Origin: Escherichia coli
Lineage (GTDB): Bacteria; Pseudomonadota; Gammaproteobacteria; Enterobacterales; Enterobacteriaceae
Direction: 5' to 3' (one strand)
DNA length: 64,000 nucleotides
Assembly (NCBI RefSeq): GCF_003790525.1
Contig: NZ_CP033635.1
A program made the position numbers and the translations under genes. Positions within the stretch are counted from its first letter, which is position 1. Every line of letters begins with the position of its first letter. Shown piece by piece: positions 5,263 to 12,102 of this stretch. Below the pieces are notes generated by a model. It did no database searches, was not told where the DNA came from, and saw only the letters and a program-made list of their open reading frames with translations.

Positions 5263-6149
5263 GCTTTACCTCCGATGGCGTTATCCAGAATACGCACAAA
5301 GTGCATTGCAGAAAGCGTCGCACCATAGAACCAGACCGCCGGAACGCGCTGAAAGCGTCCGGCGCGGACAAACGGCATGGCCTGCCACAGCGGGGTTGCC
5401 ATTAGGGTGTCCATGTCTTTGCTGTTGTCGTGATCAAAACAGAGCACATCAACGTCTTTATACGCTGCCAGACGATCGATACTGACAGCGGTACTGCCCC
5501 AGAAGTTGGTTTCCCCTTGCCAGGCATTTGGGATGCCGTACTCATCAAGAATTTCCTGGAACAGGCTGTTTGGACCGAAGACCAACATATGGCGCGGATC
5601 GATAAGTGTCGTCAGCAATAACGGGCGTGCACCACGCTTCACAAAGCGGGGTTTCATGCTGCGGATAAAGTCTTCATAGTGCGCTAAATGCGTTTCTGCT
5701 GCGCTTTGCAGGTTAAGTAAATCTGCCATTTCCGTCAGTGATTTACGCGCCATCGCCAGCGGCTGTTTGCCATCGCTGAAGTTAAATCCGCGCCCCGGCG
5801 CAATGCGTGCCAGCATTTCTGGTGAAGGGCCATATCCTGCCGACCAGACCATAAACGATGGTTTCATTTCGGTCAGCAGTTCAAGGTTAGGTTCTGTGCG
5901 CAAACCGACGTCGATCACTGAGTCCGGCAATGGTGGTTCGCTGACCCACAGGCGATAGTTGATGGTATCCGCCACGCCGTAAGGCACGATGCCGAGCGCC
6001 AGCAGTAATTCCACCGGCAACCACTCCAGCGCCACAATACGATTGGGATCAATAGCCGCCGCGTGGGCGGTATTCATCTGCCATAACAACGGAGAAAGCG
6101 CCATCGCCGTTAACAGTCGACGGCGCGAAATAAGAGGTAAGCCGCTCAT
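5259..6149 (-). CDS. fhuD: Ferric hydroxamate periplasmic binding protein FhuD
   Basis: ORF MSGLPLISRRRLL...; ATG overlaps fhuC stop (ATGA); start chosen at second Met to give 296 aa. Confidence 0.88.
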   Translation of the reverse strand: MSGLPLISRRRLLTAMALSPLLWQMNTAHAAAIDPNRIVALEWLPVELLLALGIVPYGVADTINYRLWVSEPPLPDSVIDVGLRTEPNLELLTEMKPSFMVWSAGYGPSPEMLARIAPGRGFNFSDGKQPLAMARKSLTEMADLLNLQSAAETHLAHYEDFIRSMKPRFVKRGARPLLLTTLIDPRHMLVFGPNSLFQEILDEYGIPNAWQGETNFWGSTAVSIDRLAAYKDVDVLCFDHDNSKDMDTLMATPLWQAMPFVRAGRFQRVPAVWFYGATLSAMHFVRILDNAIGGKA

Positions 6150-6946
6150 CAATAAACAAAACTCACAGGTGCAGCACCCGCCGGATGCGGCAAAATACCC
6201 ATCGGGATGCCATAAATCATTTCAAGGGTTTCGCCGCGCATAATTTCCGCAGGCGTTCCCTGAGCAATCATTTCACCACCGCGCAGGGCGACCAGATAAT
6301 CACAGTAGCGTGCCGCCATATTGATATCGTGCAACACGGCAATGACCGTCAGGCCACGCTCCTGACTTAAACGGTGCACCAGCGCCAGCACATCAACCTG
6401 GTGGGCGATATCCAGCGCCGAGGTCGGTTCGTCGAGCAACAGACAACGGCTATCCTGTGCCACCAGCATAGCGATCCACGCCCGCTGACGTTCGCCGCCA
6501 GAGAGACTATCGACCAGCCGATGCGCCAGCGGTTTTAAGCCAACCAGCGAAATCGCCTCTTCGACCTTTTCGCGATCTGCCGCACCAAAGCGCCCCAGTG
6601 CGCCATGCCACGGGTAACGACCAATCGCCACCAGTTCACGCACGGTCATCCCTTCTGCCGGAGGAAGCTGCTGCGGCAAATAAGCCACTTTGCGGGCAAA
6701 CGCTTTGCTGCTCCAGCTTTCCAGCGGCTGGGCATCAAGGAGAATCTCCCCTTCCGACGGTGGCTGGTGACGACCAAGCATTTTGAGCAGAGTGGATTTA
6801 CCAGAACCGTTGTGACCAATCAGACCGGTCACTTTCCCGGCAGGAAAGGTTAACGACAGCGGATGCAAAAGCGTGCGCCCGGGCACACGAAAGGAGATAT
6901 TACGCAGTGCAAAAGTGGTATCGGAATGATTCGTGTATTCCTGCAT
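6149..6946 (-). CDS. fhuC: Ferric hydroxamate ABC transporter ATPase FhuC
   Basis: Walker A GHNGSGKST and LSGGERQR signature; start trimmed to MQEYTNHSDTTF (265 aa). Confidence 0.9.
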   Translation of the reverse strand: MQEYTNHSDTTFALRNISFRVPGRTLLHPLSLTFPAGKVTGLIGHNGSGKSTLLKMLGRHQPPSEGEILLDAQPLESWSSKAFARKVAYLPQQLPPAEGMTVRELVAIGRYPWHGALGRFGAADREKVEEAISLVGLKPLAHRLVDSLSGGERQRAWIAMLVAQDSRCLLLDEPTSALDIAHQVDVLALVHRLSQERGLTVIAVLHDINMAARYCDYLVALRGGEMIAQGTPAEIMRGETLEMIYGIPMGILPHPAGAAPVSFVY

Positions 6947-6996
6947 AACAGCCAACTTGTGAAACGGGCACGGAAATCCGTGCCCCAAAAGAGAAA

Positions 6997-9255
6997 TTAG
7001 AAACGGAAGGTTGCGGTTGCAACGACCTGACGTTCTGCGCCCCAGAAGCAGCCATAGGTGTTAAAGCAGCTGGCGACGTATTCACGATCGAACAGGTTGT
7101 TGACATGCAGCGCCACGTTGGAGCCAGCCATGCCGACTCGCGCCAGATCATAACGCACTAACGCATCCACGACCGTATAACTTCCCACTTTAAAGGAGTT
7201 AGCCGGATCACCATAGCTGGAGCCAGTATAACGACCACCGGTGCCCAGCGTCAGACCTGAAAGCGGACCGTCAAAGAAGGTATAGTCAGCCCACAGCGAA
7301 GCCATGTGTTTTGGCACCTGTGCAGGCGTATTGCCTTTATAGGTAGTGTCGGTGGTGTATTCCGCATCGGTGTAAGTATAAGAACCTACTACGTTAACAC
7401 TCGCCGACAGCGCCGCTTTTGCTTCCAGTTCTACACCACGAGCGCGAATCTCACCGCCTTCAATCGAGAAATTGGGATTATTCGGATCCGCCATCAGGTT
7501 GTTGGTTTTGGTAAGCTGATACAGTGCGCCCGTCAGCACAATTGGGCGATCTTCCGGCACATATTTCACACCAACTTCATACTGTTTGCCTTTCGAAGGT
7601 GCAAACAGATCACCGTTTGCATCTGTCAAAGATGCTGGCTCAAACGACTCACTGTAGCTGAAGTAAGGCGTTACCCCGTTGTCGAACAGGTAGTTTACGC
7701 CACCACGCCAGGTGAACTGTTTGTCATCACGATCGGATTTATTACCGTAATCACGGTTGAAAGATGACTGTTCCGCCCAGTCATAGCGACCACCCAGAGT
7801 CACCAGCACCTTATCCCACTGCGCCTGATCCTGAACATACAGACCGGTTTGTTTCTGTTTAAGCAAAACGCGGTATGGGCCAGACGGATCCGGGTGAGCA
7901 CCAAAATCAAAGTCACTACGGTCTAAATTATAGATATCAGACGGTGCAACGGAACCGGCGTAACCGAACCAGGAGTCAATATCATTACGCATACGCATAA
8001 AGTCAACGCCGGTCAGCAGAGTGTGTTCAACCGAGCCGGTTGCGAATTTACTTTGCAACTGAGTATCAACAGAGAAGTTTTCTAATTTCTCATTATCGAT
8101 AACGTACTGACGAGTCAGTGTATGATTCCATTCTGACTGCGGGATACTTAAACATGGACTCGCCTTGAGTGCATCGTCGTCTTTGGTATACAGCGGATCC
8201 GAGCACATGCCGTAGCCATATACGCTCTTTTGCGAGACTTTATTTTGCGCAAAGCGCAGGTTCTGACGCACAGTAAAGGTGTCGTTAAATTCGTGATCGA
8301 AGCTGTAGCCCACCATCTTCTCATTACGAGAATAGGTGTTGTTCTTCGCCCCTTCATTAAAGTCTGTCGGCAGACGCTTACCGTTCGGCAGCGGCTCAAC
8401 GGTTCCCTCTTTCGGCAACCAGCCGTAATAACCGGTTTCCGGTTCGTTCTGGAAGTAAGAAAGGAAAGTGAAATTGGTTTTATCATCCGGGCGCCAGGTG
8501 AACGCTGGAGCAATAGCATAACGCTGCTCTTCTGCCCCCTTCTGCTGAGCATTGGCTGAACGCGCAATACCAGTCAGACGATAAGAGTAAACGCCGTCAT
8601 CATCCAGCGCATCACTGAAGTCAAAACCAGTCTGGAACAGGCTGTCAGTACCGGCTTTAAACTGAATTTCTTTCAGCGGTTCTGTAGTCGGGCGCTTGCT
8701 GACCATGTTCAACAGGCCGCCAGGGCTGCTTTTCCCGTACAGCACGGATACCGGACCACGCATGATTTCAGCGCGCTCCAGCATATACGGATCGATAACT
8801 GCATCGTTATAGAAGTTGCCCTGCATCTTCAGGCCATTCAGATAGTTGTTCTGGCTTTGGCCGTCAGCGGCAAATCCGCGGATGATCAGGTAATCGTAAG
8901 TGTTGGATGCGCCACGAGTTCCCACGGCAACGCCAGGAGTGTAGCTAAGAGCTTCTTTTACCGACTTCGGCTGATGCAGCGCCATCTCTTCGGCGGTCAC
9001 AACAGAAATAGACTGTGGCACTTTTTGAATCGGCGTATCGGTTTTAGTGCCGGTAGCGGACTGTCGCGCCGCAATAGTTGCAGCTGGCCCCCATGCGCTT
9101 TCTTGCGGCGCAGGTGCAGCGGTAACGGTGATAGTGTCTTCTTTCGGTTCAACCGCTGCCTGTGCATAAACAGACATGCCGCTAACCGCTGTGGCTACTA
9201 CAACTGCGATTTTACGCAGTGAGTGTTTTGGCTGAGCAGTTTTGGAACGCGCCAT
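6997..9255 (-). CDS. fhuA: TonB-dependent ferrichrome outer membrane receptor FhuA (divergent allele, 752 aa)
   Basis: N-terminus MARSKTAQPKHSLRKIAVVVATAVSGMSVYAQA and C-terminal TonB-dependent receptor motif ...ATATFRF. Confidence 0.9.
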   Translation of the reverse strand: MARSKTAQPKHSLRKIAVVVATAVSGMSVYAQAAVEPKEDTITVTAAPAPQESAWGPAATIAARQSATGTKTDTPIQKVPQSISVVTAEEMALHQPKSVKEALSYTPGVAVGTRGASNTYDYLIIRGFAADGQSQNNYLNGLKMQGNFYNDAVIDPYMLERAEIMRGPVSVLYGKSSPGGLLNMVSKRPTTEPLKEIQFKAGTDSLFQTGFDFSDALDDDGVYSYRLTGIARSANAQQKGAEEQRYAIAPAFTWRPDDKTNFTFLSYFQNEPETGYYGWLPKEGTVEPLPNGKRLPTDFNEGAKNNTYSRNEKMVGYSFDHEFNDTFTVRQNLRFAQNKVSQKSVYGYGMCSDPLYTKDDDALKASPCLSIPQSEWNHTLTRQYVIDNEKLENFSVDTQLQSKFATGSVEHTLLTGVDFMRMRNDIDSWFGYAGSVAPSDIYNLDRSDFDFGAHPDPSGPYRVLLKQKQTGLYVQDQAQWDKVLVTLGGRYDWAEQSSFNRDYGNKSDRDDKQFTWRGGVNYLFDNGVTPYFSYSESFEPASLTDANGDLFAPSKGKQYEVGVKYVPEDRPIVLTGALYQLTKTNNLMADPNNPNFSIEGGEIRARGVELEAKAALSASVNVVGSYTYTDAEYTTDTTYKGNTPAQVPKHMASLWADYTFFDGPLSGLTLGTGGRYTGSSYGDPANSFKVGSYTVVDALVRYDLARVGMAGSNVALHVNNLFDREYVASCFNTYGCFWGAERQVVATATFRF

Positions 9256-9294
9256 TGGTATATCTCTGATGTAAAGTGAATGATAACGTAAACG

Positions 9295-9327
9295 AGAATG
9301 ATTATTATAAAGATAAGATAATATTCG
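9295..9327. promoter_or_regulatory. Candidate Fur box in fhuA promoter region
   Basis: GAGAATGATTATTATAAAGATAAGATAATATTC; first 19 nt match Fur consensus GATAATGATAATCATTATC at 13/19 positions. Confidence 0.5.
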
Positions 9328-9474
9328 AAACGCTGGCGGGTTCGCAAGCGGTACGCAATCTGAGCGTTCCTGAAGGGTTAATAAACAACCAGATGAAAAG
9401 AAAGGGTTAATACTTTAGGTGGGATGTTATTTTACCGGATGGCTACTCGCCATCCGGTATGTCACGCTTAGACG

Positions 9475-12009
9475 TTAATTACTACCAAACATATCCTTGA
9501 TCCAACCGGCTACACCGTCGCTGTCTTTCTGCTCTTGCTGAGCAGGTTGCTGTTGCGGCTGTTGCTGCGGCTGAGAAGACTGATCAAACGGATTGCCTGA
9601 CGGCTGCTGCTGCATCTCACTCTGCTGGCACAGCGATTGCGGATCGCTGGTCCAGACCGGCAAGACACGCATACCACCGCTGCAAACAAAGTTGCCGTCG
9701 TAGTCCACGCCCATATCTGCAATATCTTCCGGCGGAACAAGATTCAGCGGTGTTGGCGTCTGGTTAGCCAGATAACGCTGATAAATCGACATTGCCCCGC
9801 TGGCTCCATACAGTTTGGTCGGTTGGTTGTTATCACGGCCTACCCAGGTGATGGTCACCGTGCTGCCGTCAATGCCCGCAAACCAGGTATCTACGTTATT
9901 GTTGGTAGTTCCTGTTTTCCCTGCCAGATGCAGGTTCGGGTATTTCGCCCCAAGCTGACGCCCCGTACCACGTTGTACCACCTGCTGCATGGTCCATAGT
10001 GTCAGATACGCCGCCTGCGCCGGAACCGCGCGTTCCGCCTGCGGGAAGCTCTGATACAGCACTTTGCCATCTTCCGCAATTACCGAACGCAGCGCAGAAA
10101 GCGGTGCACGGTTACCGCCGCTGGCGATAGTCTGGAATGCCTGCGCCACTTCGATTGGCGTTAAGTTCAACGCCCCCAGCAGCATCGCCGGAACCGGATG
10201 CAGCTGATCTTTCGGCACGCCCAGTTTAATCCAGGTCTCCGTAACCGCAGGCAGCCCCAGCGCCATCCCCAGATTCACCGTCGGCACGTTCATCGAACGG
10301 GTCAACGCATCCACCAGCATCACTCTGCCACTTTCGCTATAACGACGGTCATCGTTCTGCGGTGACCAGACCTGGCCATTCGGCTGACGCAGCGCGATGG
10401 GCGCATCGGCAATCCACGTGTTCAGGCGATAGATTTTCGGCTGGCTTAAGGCAGTCAGATAAGTCGCTGGTTTTGCGAGGGAACCAATCGAACGACGCGC
10501 CTGCATCGCACGGTTGTAGCCCGCAAACTGCGGCTCAGAACCACCGACCATCGCACGAACTTCACCGCTAAAGCGGTCAACAACCACAATCGCGGTTTCA
10601 AGATCGCTCAACTTACGCTGTTTTTTCAGTGCCGGAATGCCTTCCACGGCGGCTTTTTCTGCCGCGTCCTGGGCCACCGAGTCAAAGGTAGTGAAGATCT
10701 TCACGCCGGAGAGATCTTTTACCTTATCGCCTAATTTAGCCTGAAGCTCCTGGCGCACCAGTTGCATAAAGGCTGGCTGAGGAGAGATCACCCCACCGCG
10801 CGGCTGAACACCCAGCGGACGTGCACTCAACATGTCATAGAGTTCTTGATCAATAATCTGTTGCTGTTGCAGCAGACGCAGTACCAGGTTACGTCGCTCC
10901 AGCGCCAGTTTCGGGTTACGCCACGGGTTGTAGATGGACGCCCCTTTCACCATACCCACCAACAGCGCCTGCTGATCGAGGCTCAATTCTTCTACCGGGC
11001 GACCAAAGTAATACAAGCTCGCCAGCGGGAAGCCGCGGATTTCGTTGTCGCCGCTCTGACCGAGATACACCTCGTTCATATACAGCTCAAGAATACGGTC
11101 TTTGCTGTAACGCGCGTCCATGATCAGCGCCATGTAGGCTTCGTTCGCTTTACGCCAGTAAGAACGCTCGCTGGAGAGGAACAGGTTTTTAACCAACTGT
11201 TGCGTCAGCGTACTCGCCCCCTGCACCGTGCGTCCGGCAGTCAGGTTTGCCAGCACCGCACGTCCGATTGAGTAGAGACTGATCCCATCATGCTCGTAGA
11301 AATGACGGTCTTCTGTCGCCAGCAAAGTATCCACCAGCAAATCCGGGAAACCACTGCGCGGCACAAACAGACGCTGCTCACCGTTTGGTGAAGAGATCAT
11401 AGTGATCAGGCGCGGATCAAGACGGAAGAAACCGAACTGACGGTTGTTCTCCATATTGACGATCGTCGCCAGATGATCGCCATCAAAGGTCAGACGTGCA
11501 CGCACCTGCCCTTCTTTACTGTCCGGGAAATCAAACGGACGGCGGATCATCTCAATGCTGTTGGCCTGCACGGTAAATTCGCCAGGACGGGTCATTTTCG
11601 ACACCTGACGATACTGGGTCGCCTCCAGCAGATTCACCATCTCGTTCTTGCTGATGGTCATGTCTGGCTCAAGGTTGACCATCCGGCCATAAACTGCCGC
11701 GGGCAGTTGCCAGACCTTGCCATCAATACGGCTGCGAATTTTTTGATCGAGATAAACGCCGTAAATGGCGATCAGCACGGCAAAAACGATAGCCAGTTTT
11801 AGCAGCAGCCATAGCCAGCCGCGTTTGCCACGAGGCTTACGCCCTTTGCCTTTGCCCTTACCTTTGCGCGGCATCGGTTCTTCATCCTCATAGTCATCAT
11901 AATCGTCGTAATCATCGTCATCTTCGTAACGACGACGGCTTACCTTTTGTTTGACCGGACGCGTCGGTTTCCCTTTGCGTCCAATTGGCTCGCGGTCATT
12001 CCCGGCCAT
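9475..12009 (-). CDS. mrcB: Penicillin-binding protein 1B (bifunctional transglycosylase/transpeptidase)
   Basis: [16 protein letters not shown]...[15 protein letters not shown]... 844 aa from the Met chosen; track ORF extends 5 codons upstream. Confidence 0.9.
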
Positions 12010-12102
12010 GCTTTTTCTCCGCAATATTCAGGCGCAAAAGCCCGATTTTCTGTTCTTCTGTTGCAAGACAGAAGAAGATATCTCTCAAATTTACTTTGAT
12101 CT

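Follow-up and report, generated by a model that had tools for sequence, protein, structure and literature searches.

The FhuA protein of Escherichia coli is the receptor for phages T1, T5 and phi80 and for many new siphophages, as well as for colicin M, microcin J25 and albomycin. A sequence-only reading of a 64,000-nucleotide stretch of E. coli DNA (RefSeq assembly GCF_003790525.1, contig NZ_CP033635.1), referred to here as the window, described its fhuA as a divergent allele with substitutions clustered in predicted surface loops. The question raised by this locus is how such a receptor surface came about, and what it may mean for the ligands that bind it.

The gene lies on the minus strand (6997..9255) as an intact open reading frame of a 752-aa precursor, composed of a 33-aa signal peptide, a plug and a 22-strand barrel, against 747 aa for FhuA of K-12. 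The protein is 100% identical to the ‘ferrichrome porin FhuA’ of E. coli SMS-3-5 (RefSeq WP_000124395.1). It matches the NCBIfam equivalog NF007465, ‘ferrichrome porin FhuA’, over its full length, scoring 1448 bits where the cutoff is 803, and the Pfam domains PF07715 (Plug) and PF00593 (TonB-dependent receptor) are recorded for the identical protein. The gene mrcB is located upstream and fhuC, fhuD and fhuB downstream, which is the chromosomal, syntenic mrcB-fhuACDB arrangement, and the fhuA flanks are 95-100% identical to K-12. Antisense frames within fhuA (7306-7767 and 8230-8559 on the plus strand, among others) were rejected as mechanical open reading frames in a conserved coding gene. 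The mrcB-fhuA intergenic region (9256..9474, minus strand) reads as the putative fhuA promoter with a Fur-box-like AT-rich site at about 9294-9312, and the 200 nt upstream of fhuA are 97-100% identical to K-12. The candidate site agrees by eye with 14 of the 19 positions of the 19-mer consensus. A scan with a Fur-box consensus at up to three mismatches returned no match in the fhuA promoter, and its sole match, inside the yacH coding sequence, is probably due to chance.

An AlphaFold2 model built from 148 diverse sequences was used for mapping (pLDDT 91.5, pTM 0.90, 22 barrel strands). Its closeness to K-12 FhuA was assessed with Foldseek, which gave a TM of 0.98 and an rmsd of 1.6 Å to 1by5_A. 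Another model, from 33 close enterobacterial FhuAs, was dropped for mapping with a mean pLDDT of 47. Loop boundaries were taken from the retained model and cross-checked with published loop numbers. They agree with those given for K-12 (EL7, E501-S516 in mature numbering; EL8, T546-E564; the L8 deletion, D552-F558) and with the loops of Wang et al. 2018.

Alignment to the K-12 FhuA of the PDB and to a K-12-type genome copy gave 88.9% identity, with 83 substitutions, a 6-aa insertion and a 1-aa deletion, or 90 differing columns. The differences fall into blocks at precursor residues 337-392 (32 columns, including the insertion), 427-465 (20), 495-508 (9), 541-550 (8) and 592-598 (5). Outside these blocks there are isolated differences only, four in the plug and a few in the strands. 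The sequence-only reading had placed the divergence in these blocks and at window positions 7450-8250, and had stated the 752 and 747 aa lengths and the retention of both cysteines in the first block. All of this is borne out by the open reading frame and the alignments: the blocks lie where claimed, C351 and C368 are both present, and the interval coincides with the divergent cassette described below. The same reading had assigned the differences to external loops, and on the model they do fall on L4-L8. Neither identity to K-12 within the blocks nor a mapping to periplasmic turns was found.

The extracellular loops contain 53 of the 90 differing columns, all of them in L2 and L4-L8, an enrichment of 53/175 against 37/544 elsewhere (Fisher p 4e-14). 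With outer and periplasmic strand halves as a crude proxy for membrane depth, 22 columns lie in the outer halves, giving 75 of 90 in loops or outer halves together, and 11 on the periplasmic side. Ten of these 11 are conservative, as are all 10 changes in periplasmic strand halves. No differences from K-12 were present in loops L1, L3 and L9-L11.

L4 (aa 351-378; 8122..8205, minus strand, as for all loops here), the disulfide loop C351-C368, carries the 6-aa insertion (KDDDALK region) and differs from K-12 at 22 of 28 residues. Y325 of K-12 is replaced and APADKGHY has become PQSEWNHT. The same L4 is found in Escherichia sp. E1V33, and 41 of 45 residues are identical in ATCC 25922. L5 (aa 431-459; 7879..7965) is one residue shorter than in K-12 and differs at 16 of 29 residues. 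The L6 tip (aa 501-504; 7744..7755) belongs to the variable block at aa 495-508, which extends onto strands beta11 and beta12 at their outer ends. In L7 (aa 540-553; 7597..7638) QVGKDGNI of K-12 is LTDANGDL, with 8 of 14 residues changed. L8 (aa 590-596; 7468..7488) has the tip DPNNPNF in place of the K-12 DPEGSFF, four of seven residues being changed (E554N, G555N, S556P and F557N).

At the DNA level the divergence is not confined to the loops. A central cassette (7406..8255, minus strand; gene nt ~1001-1850, aa ~334-617) spans strands beta7-beta16 together with loops L4-L8. Its sliding identity to K-12 is 0.53-0.81, against 0.95-1.0 in its flanks, and it is about 72% identical overall. Within it 230 of 832 nucleotides differ, compared with 66 of 1406 outside (chi-square 238, p 1e-53). 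The cassette has a dS of 1.20, a dN of 0.18 and a dN/dS of 0.15 to K-12, with dN near 0 in the flanks. Over five gene segments in turn the dS to K-12 is 0.03, 0.53, 0.11, 1.20 and 0.08, and residues 1-95, 261-325 and 626-752 are 98-100% identical. The second of these peaks corresponds to a milder tract (8456..8955, minus strand; gene nt ~301-800) over the plug and beta1-beta3, which is 0.86-0.92 identical in DNA and almost wholly synonymous: residues 96-260 have a dS of 0.53, a dN of 0.021 and eight conservative amino-acid changes.

The codons of the cassette strands alone have a pS of 0.53 (0.53-0.61), equal to inter-genus values, and residues 511-540 combine a pS of 0.72 with a pN of 0.00. 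Because these strand codons are synonymously saturated, the cassette is an old, separately evolved replacement and not a set of loop substitutions in a K-12-like gene. The original description is therefore upheld as to clustering, which both tests support, and must be widened as to its nature, since a whole old cassette of ~850 nt is involved, strands included. Cassette classes cut across genera, and the flanks follow species. A natural recombinant exists in strain UID2309220009, which is identical to SMS-3-5 in mrcB and in fhuA nt 1-1000 and then continues with a K-12-type cassette. These alignments show fhuA of SMS-3-5 to be a mosaic gene with ordinary E. coli ends and an ordinary middle piece, into which the central cassette of an old, separate allele class has been set.

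The relatives of the cassette lie widely within the Enterobacteriaceae. Its protein is 79-86% identical to FhuA of Citrobacter, Enterobacter, Lelliottia, Silvania and Kosakonia and 74% identical to that of K-12, with Citrobacter youngae and Citrobacter sp. On2M at 86%. The K-12 cassette protein in turn shares 84-91% of its residues with Salmonella, Enterobacter and Phytobacter. L5 is identical at 38-40 of 44 residues in Citrobacter and Silvania despite saturated synonymous sites.

This greater nearness to Citrobacter than to K-12 raises the possibility that the cassette was recently imported from a Citrobacter-like donor of another genus and is now spreading, and exchange between enterobacterial species has indeed been proposed (Wang et al. 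2018). A search of 100,044 species-representative genomes, one per species, revealed no recent donor outside Escherichia: the pS to every non-Escherichia genus sampled was 0.63-0.72, at nucleotide identities of 0.74-0.79. The best match beyond E. coli was Escherichia sp. E1V33 (97% aa, pS 0.27). Inside E. coli, variants of the same cassette type (E2, defined below) are already separated by a pS of 0.28-0.32, so the class has been diversifying within Escherichia for a long time, and a recent import is an improbable account. The distribution in E. coli is broad. Of 5426 complete genomes, 181 have the SMS-3-5 allele (at 99% identity or above) and about 1070 (about 20%), including ST131 and ATCC 25922, have cassettes of its type. 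The exact protein is present on at least 1000 contigs, and the best 120 protein matches are near-identical E. coli entries.

A still less probable account is rapid positive selection by point mutation, in which phage pressure would have built up substitutions in the loops of a K-12-like gene. The enrichment of differences in extracellular loops is what it predicts, as is the tight cluster of changes at the L8 tip relative to other E2 alleles, and earlier genome scans (Chen 2006, Petersen 2007) are cited by later papers as having found fhuA to be positively selected. It is nevertheless largely refuted by the strands, whose protein is unchanged and whose synonymous sites are saturated (dS ~1.2, compared with 0.03-0.1 at the ends of the gene). 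The boundaries of the divergent blocks are also sharp, and the loop sequences recur in other genera. Comparing genera within one class, the pN/pS in loops is about 0.2, and between classes it is 0.46; even in the loops it stays below 1, so pairwise comparison gives no direct sign of positive selection. Neutral drift of unconstrained loops, free of functional meaning, is the least credible reading. Endriss and Braun 2004 is cited for the finding that loop deletions cost little function where most ligands are concerned, yet the loops are conserved within a class across genera, occur as a few discrete types with no continuum, and include L3 and L9-L11 with no difference at all.

The locus as a whole is thus explained with high confidence by an intact, syntenic fhuA that displays a known alternative surface, of the E2 type, on a mosaic gene. 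The cassette class is also present in Citrobacter, Enterobacter, Kosakonia, Atlantibacter and further Enterobacteriaceae, and homologous recombination in the conserved flanks would transfer such cassettes from one E. coli background to another. The extracellular rim is re-surfaced over about half of its extent, in the loops contacted by T5 pb5 and by other ligands of FhuA. Several discrete surface types are likely maintained in the population by frequency-dependent pressure, exerted by phages that depend on FhuA, by colicin M and by microcin J25.

The sole unusual detail of the allele is the NNPN tip of L8. The DPNNPNF tip was unique among 32 FhuAs compared from many genera and is carried by 181 of the 5426 complete genomes. 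Other E2 alleles have DPNGSLF, from which SMS-3-5 differs by 8 nt within six codons, and a tip of the form G-S-hydrophobic-aromatic is kept in all other sampled E1- and E2-class FhuAs from more than 20 genera. The first half of the change, N-N-P, resembles the L8 of the E3/S2 class, which suggests that the patch may have arisen by micro-conversion within L8. E2-like and E3-like states are intermixed at the informative sites, which are few and span about 70 nt. Infection by T5, T1 and phi80 is lost on deletion of L8 and of no other single loop, several FhuA phages being blocked, and F557 was proposed earlier as a key phage contact. It is a tentative and rather doubtful suggestion that the derived tip alone could make cells broadly resistant to those FhuA phages that depend on L8, and perhaps to colicin M, with ferrichrome uptake kept; if true, the patch would be a natural minimal escape variant.

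The transport function of the receptor is probably unaffected. The TonB-box region at the N-terminus, EDTITVTA, is the same as in K-12. R81, G99, Q100, Y116, Y313, Y315, F391 and F702, taken here as ferrichrome contacts (Ferguson/Locher 1998), all lie outside the 90 differing columns. Y244 and W246, ferrichrome-contact residues named in the literature, are likewise spared. Since the plug, the TonB box, the ferrichrome-binding residues and the periplasmic face are conserved, ferrichrome transport by the SMS-3-5 protein is most likely retained.

The consequences for other ligands are less direct. K-12 FhuA has been resolved in complex with T5 pb5 (8A8C and 8B14), with Llp (8A60), which induces a movement of EL7 and EL8, and with MccJ25 (4CU4). 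In the pb5 complex, 23 of 27 hydrogen bonds are made with EL4, EL5 and EL8 (8, 8 and 7, respectively), and a change in phage or colicin susceptibility through the SMS-3-5 loop type is plausible. Degroux et al. report that point changes and the deletion of single loops are tolerated at the pb5-FhuA interface, and that T5 resistance can have other causes in strains whose contact residues are unchanged; the receptor sequence may therefore not be the main determinant. Natural fhuA divergence is known to correlate with MccJ25 resistance. A search of the literature found no allele-swap or host-range tests of the natural E. coli FhuA classes. Knowledge of receptor contacts derived from K-12 does not apply directly to E2-type cassettes, and the surface type of a strain is relevant to host range in phage therapy and to siderophore-antibiotic or bacteriocin targeting.

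The mosaic polymorphism of FhuA, its location in the loops and its mosaic origin have already been published, and the window provides a well-characterised example. Wang et al. 2018 (Infect Immun 86:e00573-18; bioRxiv 10.1101/320069) described the clusters E1 (K-12), E2 (with an L4 insertion), E3 and E4, found indels in loops L3-L7 and L10, and proposed local recombination as well as the exchange between enterobacterial species, after speciation, noted above. Their text does not name SMS-3-5, and its FhuA is assigned to E2 here by features of the published description. A 6-aa insertion is present between the two L4 cysteines, and the L4 and L5 peptides are retained, unlike in E3. L6 and L7 match K-12 in length, with no elongation of the E3/S2 kind, and L3 and L10 are as in K-12, with none of the insertions of E4. 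The strain 789 allele, in contrast, has elongated L6 and L7 and is without L4.

Among E2 alleles, those of ATCC 25922, ST131 and O145 are 96-97% identical to SMS-3-5 in protein and, compared with E1/S1, share the L4 insertion. The long sub-variant of L4, in a protein of 752 aa, is common to SMS-3-5 and ATCC 25922, and the ST131 and O145 alleles are of 749 aa. SMS-3-5 is set apart from the remaining E2 alleles by an L8 tip of its own (NNPN as opposed to GSL), a Q-to-L change at the start of L7, and the synonymous distance given above. The resemblance to K-12 FhuA (PDB 1BY3/1BY5/2FCP/1QFF) is one of locus, operon and fold, with the signal peptide, TonB-box region, L1, L3, L9-L11 and C-terminal third identical and the plug different only at its four conservative positions; the two part in L4, L5, L7 and L8 and in the saturated synonymous sites of the cassette.

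Natural differences between Salmonella FhuA variants alter sensitivity to microcin J25 and phages, with hydroxamate uptake kept. That precedent comes from another species and another allele class (S1/S2), and the effect there is for MccJ25. The closest general parallel is with mosaic outer-membrane protein genes (Chen 2022; AEM 2025, PMC12175518), to which follow-up work has extended the model. These genes have hypervariable extracellular loop tips of a few discrete types, while their other parts are conserved under purifying selection; they sit at syntenic loci, and their trees conflict with those of the strains. All of these features are found in SMS-3-5 fhuA and none differs in kind. What is added here is that the whole beta7-beta16 segment, beyond the loop tips, is old, with synonymous divergence at the inter-genus level, and that cassettes related to the E2 type are found in Citrobacter, Kosakonia and Atlantibacter.

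The fhuA gene occupies window positions 6997-9255 on the minus strand as a 752-codon ORF, preceded by mrcB and followed by fhuC, fhuD and fhuB. It matches fhuA of E. coli SMS-3-5 (NC_010498.1, 177787-180045) at 100% identity, and RefSeq labels the product of that gene 'ferrichrome porin FhuA' (WP_000124395.1). The protein scores 1448 bits against the NCBI curated FhuA equivalog model (cutoff 803), an identical protein is recorded from at least 1000 contigs, and the region upstream of the gene is 97-100% identical to K-12. The gene is intact, syntenic and FhuA-folded. A fhuC ORF of 279 aa with a TTG start (window 6149-6988, minus strand) is no real feature but an artefact of where ORF listing places the start codon; RefSeq differs, giving a fhuC of 798 nt (265 aa) that starts 51 nt past the fhuA stop. 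A scan of the whole window for the Fur-box consensus, allowing up to three mismatches, returned one match only, GGTGATGATAATCATCATC at 46515-46533 (minus strand). This lies within the CDS of yacH, encoding a DUF3300 protein, in the lpdA-acnB interval, where GAT-rich codons probably resemble the consensus by chance.

Alignment to the solved K-12 FhuA chains and a K-12-type genomic copy gave 88.9% identity, with 83 substitutions, one 6-residue insertion and one 1-residue deletion. The differences fall mainly in five blocks (SMS-3-5 precursor residues 337-392, 427-465, 495-508, 541-550 and 592-598); beyond these there are only scattered conservative changes, of which the plug has four and the strands a few. 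The sequence-only reading had given the lengths (752 against 747 aa in K-12) and the location of the blocks almost exactly, and was also correct that both L4 cysteines (C351 and C368) are kept and that the plug and most strands are K-12-like.

An AlphaFold2 model from a shallow alignment (pLDDT 47) was left out of the structural mapping, which used a model built after 127 diverse representatives had been added (pLDDT 91.5, pTM 0.90; TM 0.98 and rmsd 1.6 A to the K-12 crystal structures). Extracellular loops, taken as its inter-strand segments, are L3 (aa 275-306), L4 (351-378), L5 (431-459), L6 (501-504), L7 (540-553), L8 (590-596), L9 (636-649), L10 (678-692) and L11 (720-742), and match the published limits of EL7 (E501-S516), EL8 (T546-E564) and the L8 deletion (D552-F558) after numbering offsets. 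The loops hold 53 of the 90 differing columns: 22 of 28 residues in L4, 16 of 29 in L5, 2 of 4 in L6, 8 of 14 in L7, 4 of 7 in L8 and 1 of 6 in L2, with none in L1, L3 or L9-L11. Outer strand halves account for 22 columns, periplasmic halves for 10 (all conservative: V/I/L, S/A, E/Q, D/E, N/Q), the plug for four and periplasmic turn T4 for one. Differences are enriched in the loops relative to the remaining mature protein (Fisher p = 4e-14) and on the outer side of the barrel relative to the periplasmic side (p = 5e-8, the half-strand split being a crude proxy for membrane depth). The blocks truly differ from K-12 and sit in external loops, not periplasmic turns.

In a sliding comparison with K-12, DNA identity is 0.95-1.0 over mrcB, fhuCDB and the ends of fhuA, and drops to 0.53-0.81 across a central cassette (gene nt ~1000 to ~1850; window 7406-8255) that spans strands beta7-beta16 and loops L4-L8. 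A second divergent tract (window 8456-8955, minus strand; gene nt ~300-800) has an identity of 0.86-0.92. Nei-Gojobori estimates for SMS-3-5 against K-12 in five segments gave dS of 0.03 for aa 1-95, 0.53 for aa 96-260, 0.11 for aa 261-325, 1.20 (dN 0.18) for aa 326-625 and 0.08 for aa 626-752. The second tract, covering the plug and beta1-beta3 within aa 96-260, carries only eight amino acid changes, all conservative, and looks like a tract that recombined separately and is under strong purifying selection. In strain UID2309220009 (locus L005, NZ_CM142667.1, 247-5244), identity to SMS-3-5 is 99-100% through mrcB and fhuA nt 1-1000, and the cassette is K-12-type (dS 1.22 against SMS-3-5), with a breakpoint near gene nt 1000. 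This strain is a natural recombinant, and the cassette has therefore been exchanged by homologous recombination.

The origin of the cassette was sought by searching its protein against one genome per bacterial species, followed by per-segment comparisons, which indicate that cassette classes cut across genera and that the gene ends track species relationships. The SMS-3-5 cassette is 74% identical at the amino acid level to K-12, 97% to Escherichia sp. E1V33, and 79-86% to Citrobacter, Lelliottia, Silvania, Enterobacter vonholyi, Kosakonia, Atlantibacter and Klebsiella indica. That of K-12 is 99% identical to E. whittamii and 84-91% to Salmonella arizonae, several Enterobacter, Leclercia and Phytobacter massiliensis. 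A third E. coli class (77% identical), found in strains 789 (locus L006) and SCPM-O-B-8794 (locus L067, 3001-5190), is divergent over nearly the whole of fhuA, plug included; ~10% of complete E. coli genomes lie in the 60-80% identity band. The protein of this class has 729 aa, without the L4 disulfide loop and with longer L6 and L7; the nearest relatives of the class are Citrobacter sp. Res13 and Superficieibacter (cassette pN 0.06). No other genus compared is a recent donor of the SMS-3-5 cassette, because synonymous divergence from each is saturated (pS 0.63-0.72); variants of the E2 type, the published cluster discussed below, differ mutually within E. coli by pS 0.28-0.32. In several other Enterobacteriaceae, naive upstream ORF extension gave FhuA 30-50 extra N-terminal residues (e.g. 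MPGMFRIICCGHNNNSRLRYHSL...; loci L018, L023, L025, L034, L041-L043, L046, L062, L068 and L071), most likely an artefact of taking the first Met where the frame stays open across the promoter.

Free drift of the loops, or a continuous arms race, is disfavoured by their conservation within a class across genera, where pN/pS is ~0.2 against 0.46 between classes; L5 of SMS-3-5 shares 38-40 of 44 residues with Citrobacter or Silvania. The pattern is that of surface types few in number, old and constrained internally. Loop substitutions gained in a burst by one lineage alone are ruled out, since with loops masked the cassette still has, in its strand and turn codons, a pS of 0.53 against K-12, the same as between genera (0.55-0.69), and nucleotide differences are concentrated in the cassette (230/832 against 66/1406 elsewhere; chi-square 238, p 1e-53). 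The loop clustering proposed in the sequence-only reading stands, but by these comparisons it arose through replacement of a cassette within a mosaic gene, strand codons having diverged as well, and not through loop-focused substitution.

A full-length fhuA query matched 5424 of 5426 complete E. coli genomes. By cassette-only search of the same 5426, 181 genomes carry the SMS-3-5 sub-allele (cassette identity >=99%), 266 (90-95%) and 623 (80-90%, including the ST131 type at 89.1%) are E2-type, 3697 (60-80%) are K-12-type, and 659 without a match have more divergent classes or no fhuA. Some 20% of these genomes therefore have an E2-type cassette, a figure that is not a population frequency because the collection is skewed to clinical lineages. 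Three fhuA matches are plasmid-borne, not chromosomal, and in one genome, strain 0H18 (NZ_CP081767.1), the gene is broken by an ISAs1-family transposase. In an ST131 genome (locus L003, NZ_OX637964.1, 1-2781), genes for a fimbrial usher and for a fimbrial protein lie immediately upstream of fhuA in the place of mrcB, and identity to window 9475-12024 drops to ~0.35 from ~125 nt 5' of the fhuA start, pointing to an insertion or a rearrangement where mrcB meets fhuA in this lineage.

The structural part of the sequence-only reading is supported, and its functional part, altered susceptibility, is plausible. The plug is nearly as in K-12 and the TonB-box region is unchanged. The ferrichrome-contact positions of the 1998 structures are all missing from the list of differences. 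Also absent from it are Y244 and W246, ferrichrome contacts named in the literature. Transport of ferrichrome and albomycin would be retained, and the outer rim of L4-L8 would present a changed surface. Of the 27 hydrogen bonds that the T5 receptor-binding protein pb5 forms with FhuA, 23 involve EL4, EL5 and EL8, so binding of K-12-adapted receptor-binding proteins to SMS-3-5 FhuA is likely to be weakened or lost. There is precedent in the correlation of microcin J25 resistance with natural fhuA divergence in E. coli and Salmonella. Against this, the pb5-FhuA interface reportedly withstands point changes and the deletion of single loops, and wild strains can be resistant to T5 for other reasons. 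No allele-swap test of the natural E. coli FhuA classes was found in the literature searched. As the FhuA types are few, old and internally conserved, the classes may be maintained by long-term frequency-dependent selection from phages and bacteriocins.

The L8 tip reads DPxGS[FLIV][FW]SVEG, or a near variant, in all other E1/E2-class FhuAs compared (>25, from many genera), and DPNNPNFSIEG in SMS-3-5 (E554N, G555N, S556P and F557N relative to K-12). Escherichia sp. E1V33 is identical to SMS-3-5 in L4 and L5, yet has the standard tip. Compared with other E2 alleles, 8 nt are changed within six codons amid otherwise similar DNA, and the carriers are exactly the 181 genomes with the SMS-3-5 sub-allele. 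The N-N-P half resembles E3/S2-type L8, and the patch may, on thin evidence, be a conversion tract. According to published work, T5 sensitivity is abolished by deletion of L8 and of no other single loop; loss of L8 also impairs the binding of T1 and phi80 as well as ferrichrome transport, and it blocks SO1-like phages. A key contact role has been put forward for F557. The L8 variant is, as a hypothesis only, the most interesting lead; were it a natural minimal escape change, the added interest would be modest.

Wang et al. 2018 (bioRxiv 10.1101/320069; Infect Immun 86:e00573-18) describe four E. coli FhuA clusters: E1, which includes K-12; E2, with an L4 insertion relative to E1/S1; E3, with L4 and L5 shortened and L6 and L7 elongated; and E4, with insertions in L3 and L10. 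They place indels at loop apexes, find fhuA incongruent with fhuCDB and housekeeping trees, and propose local recombination. Follow-up papers extended this 'mosaic evolution' to lamB, ompA, ompC, ompF and 16 more outer-membrane protein families, with hypervariable-region types limited in number. The SMS-3-5 allele agrees with E2 in every feature described, an assignment made by features because the text of the paper does not name the strain. With the divergent FhuA, the sequence-only reading thus correctly found again a known polymorphism, in a genome that was itself already published. To what was already known, the present comparison makes three small additions: that inter-genus-level synonymous divergence spans the whole beta7-beta16 segment, beyond the loop tips, that E2-type cassettes are related to those of Citrobacter, Kosakonia, Atlantibacter and others, and that the SMS-3-5 sub-allele has an unusual L8.
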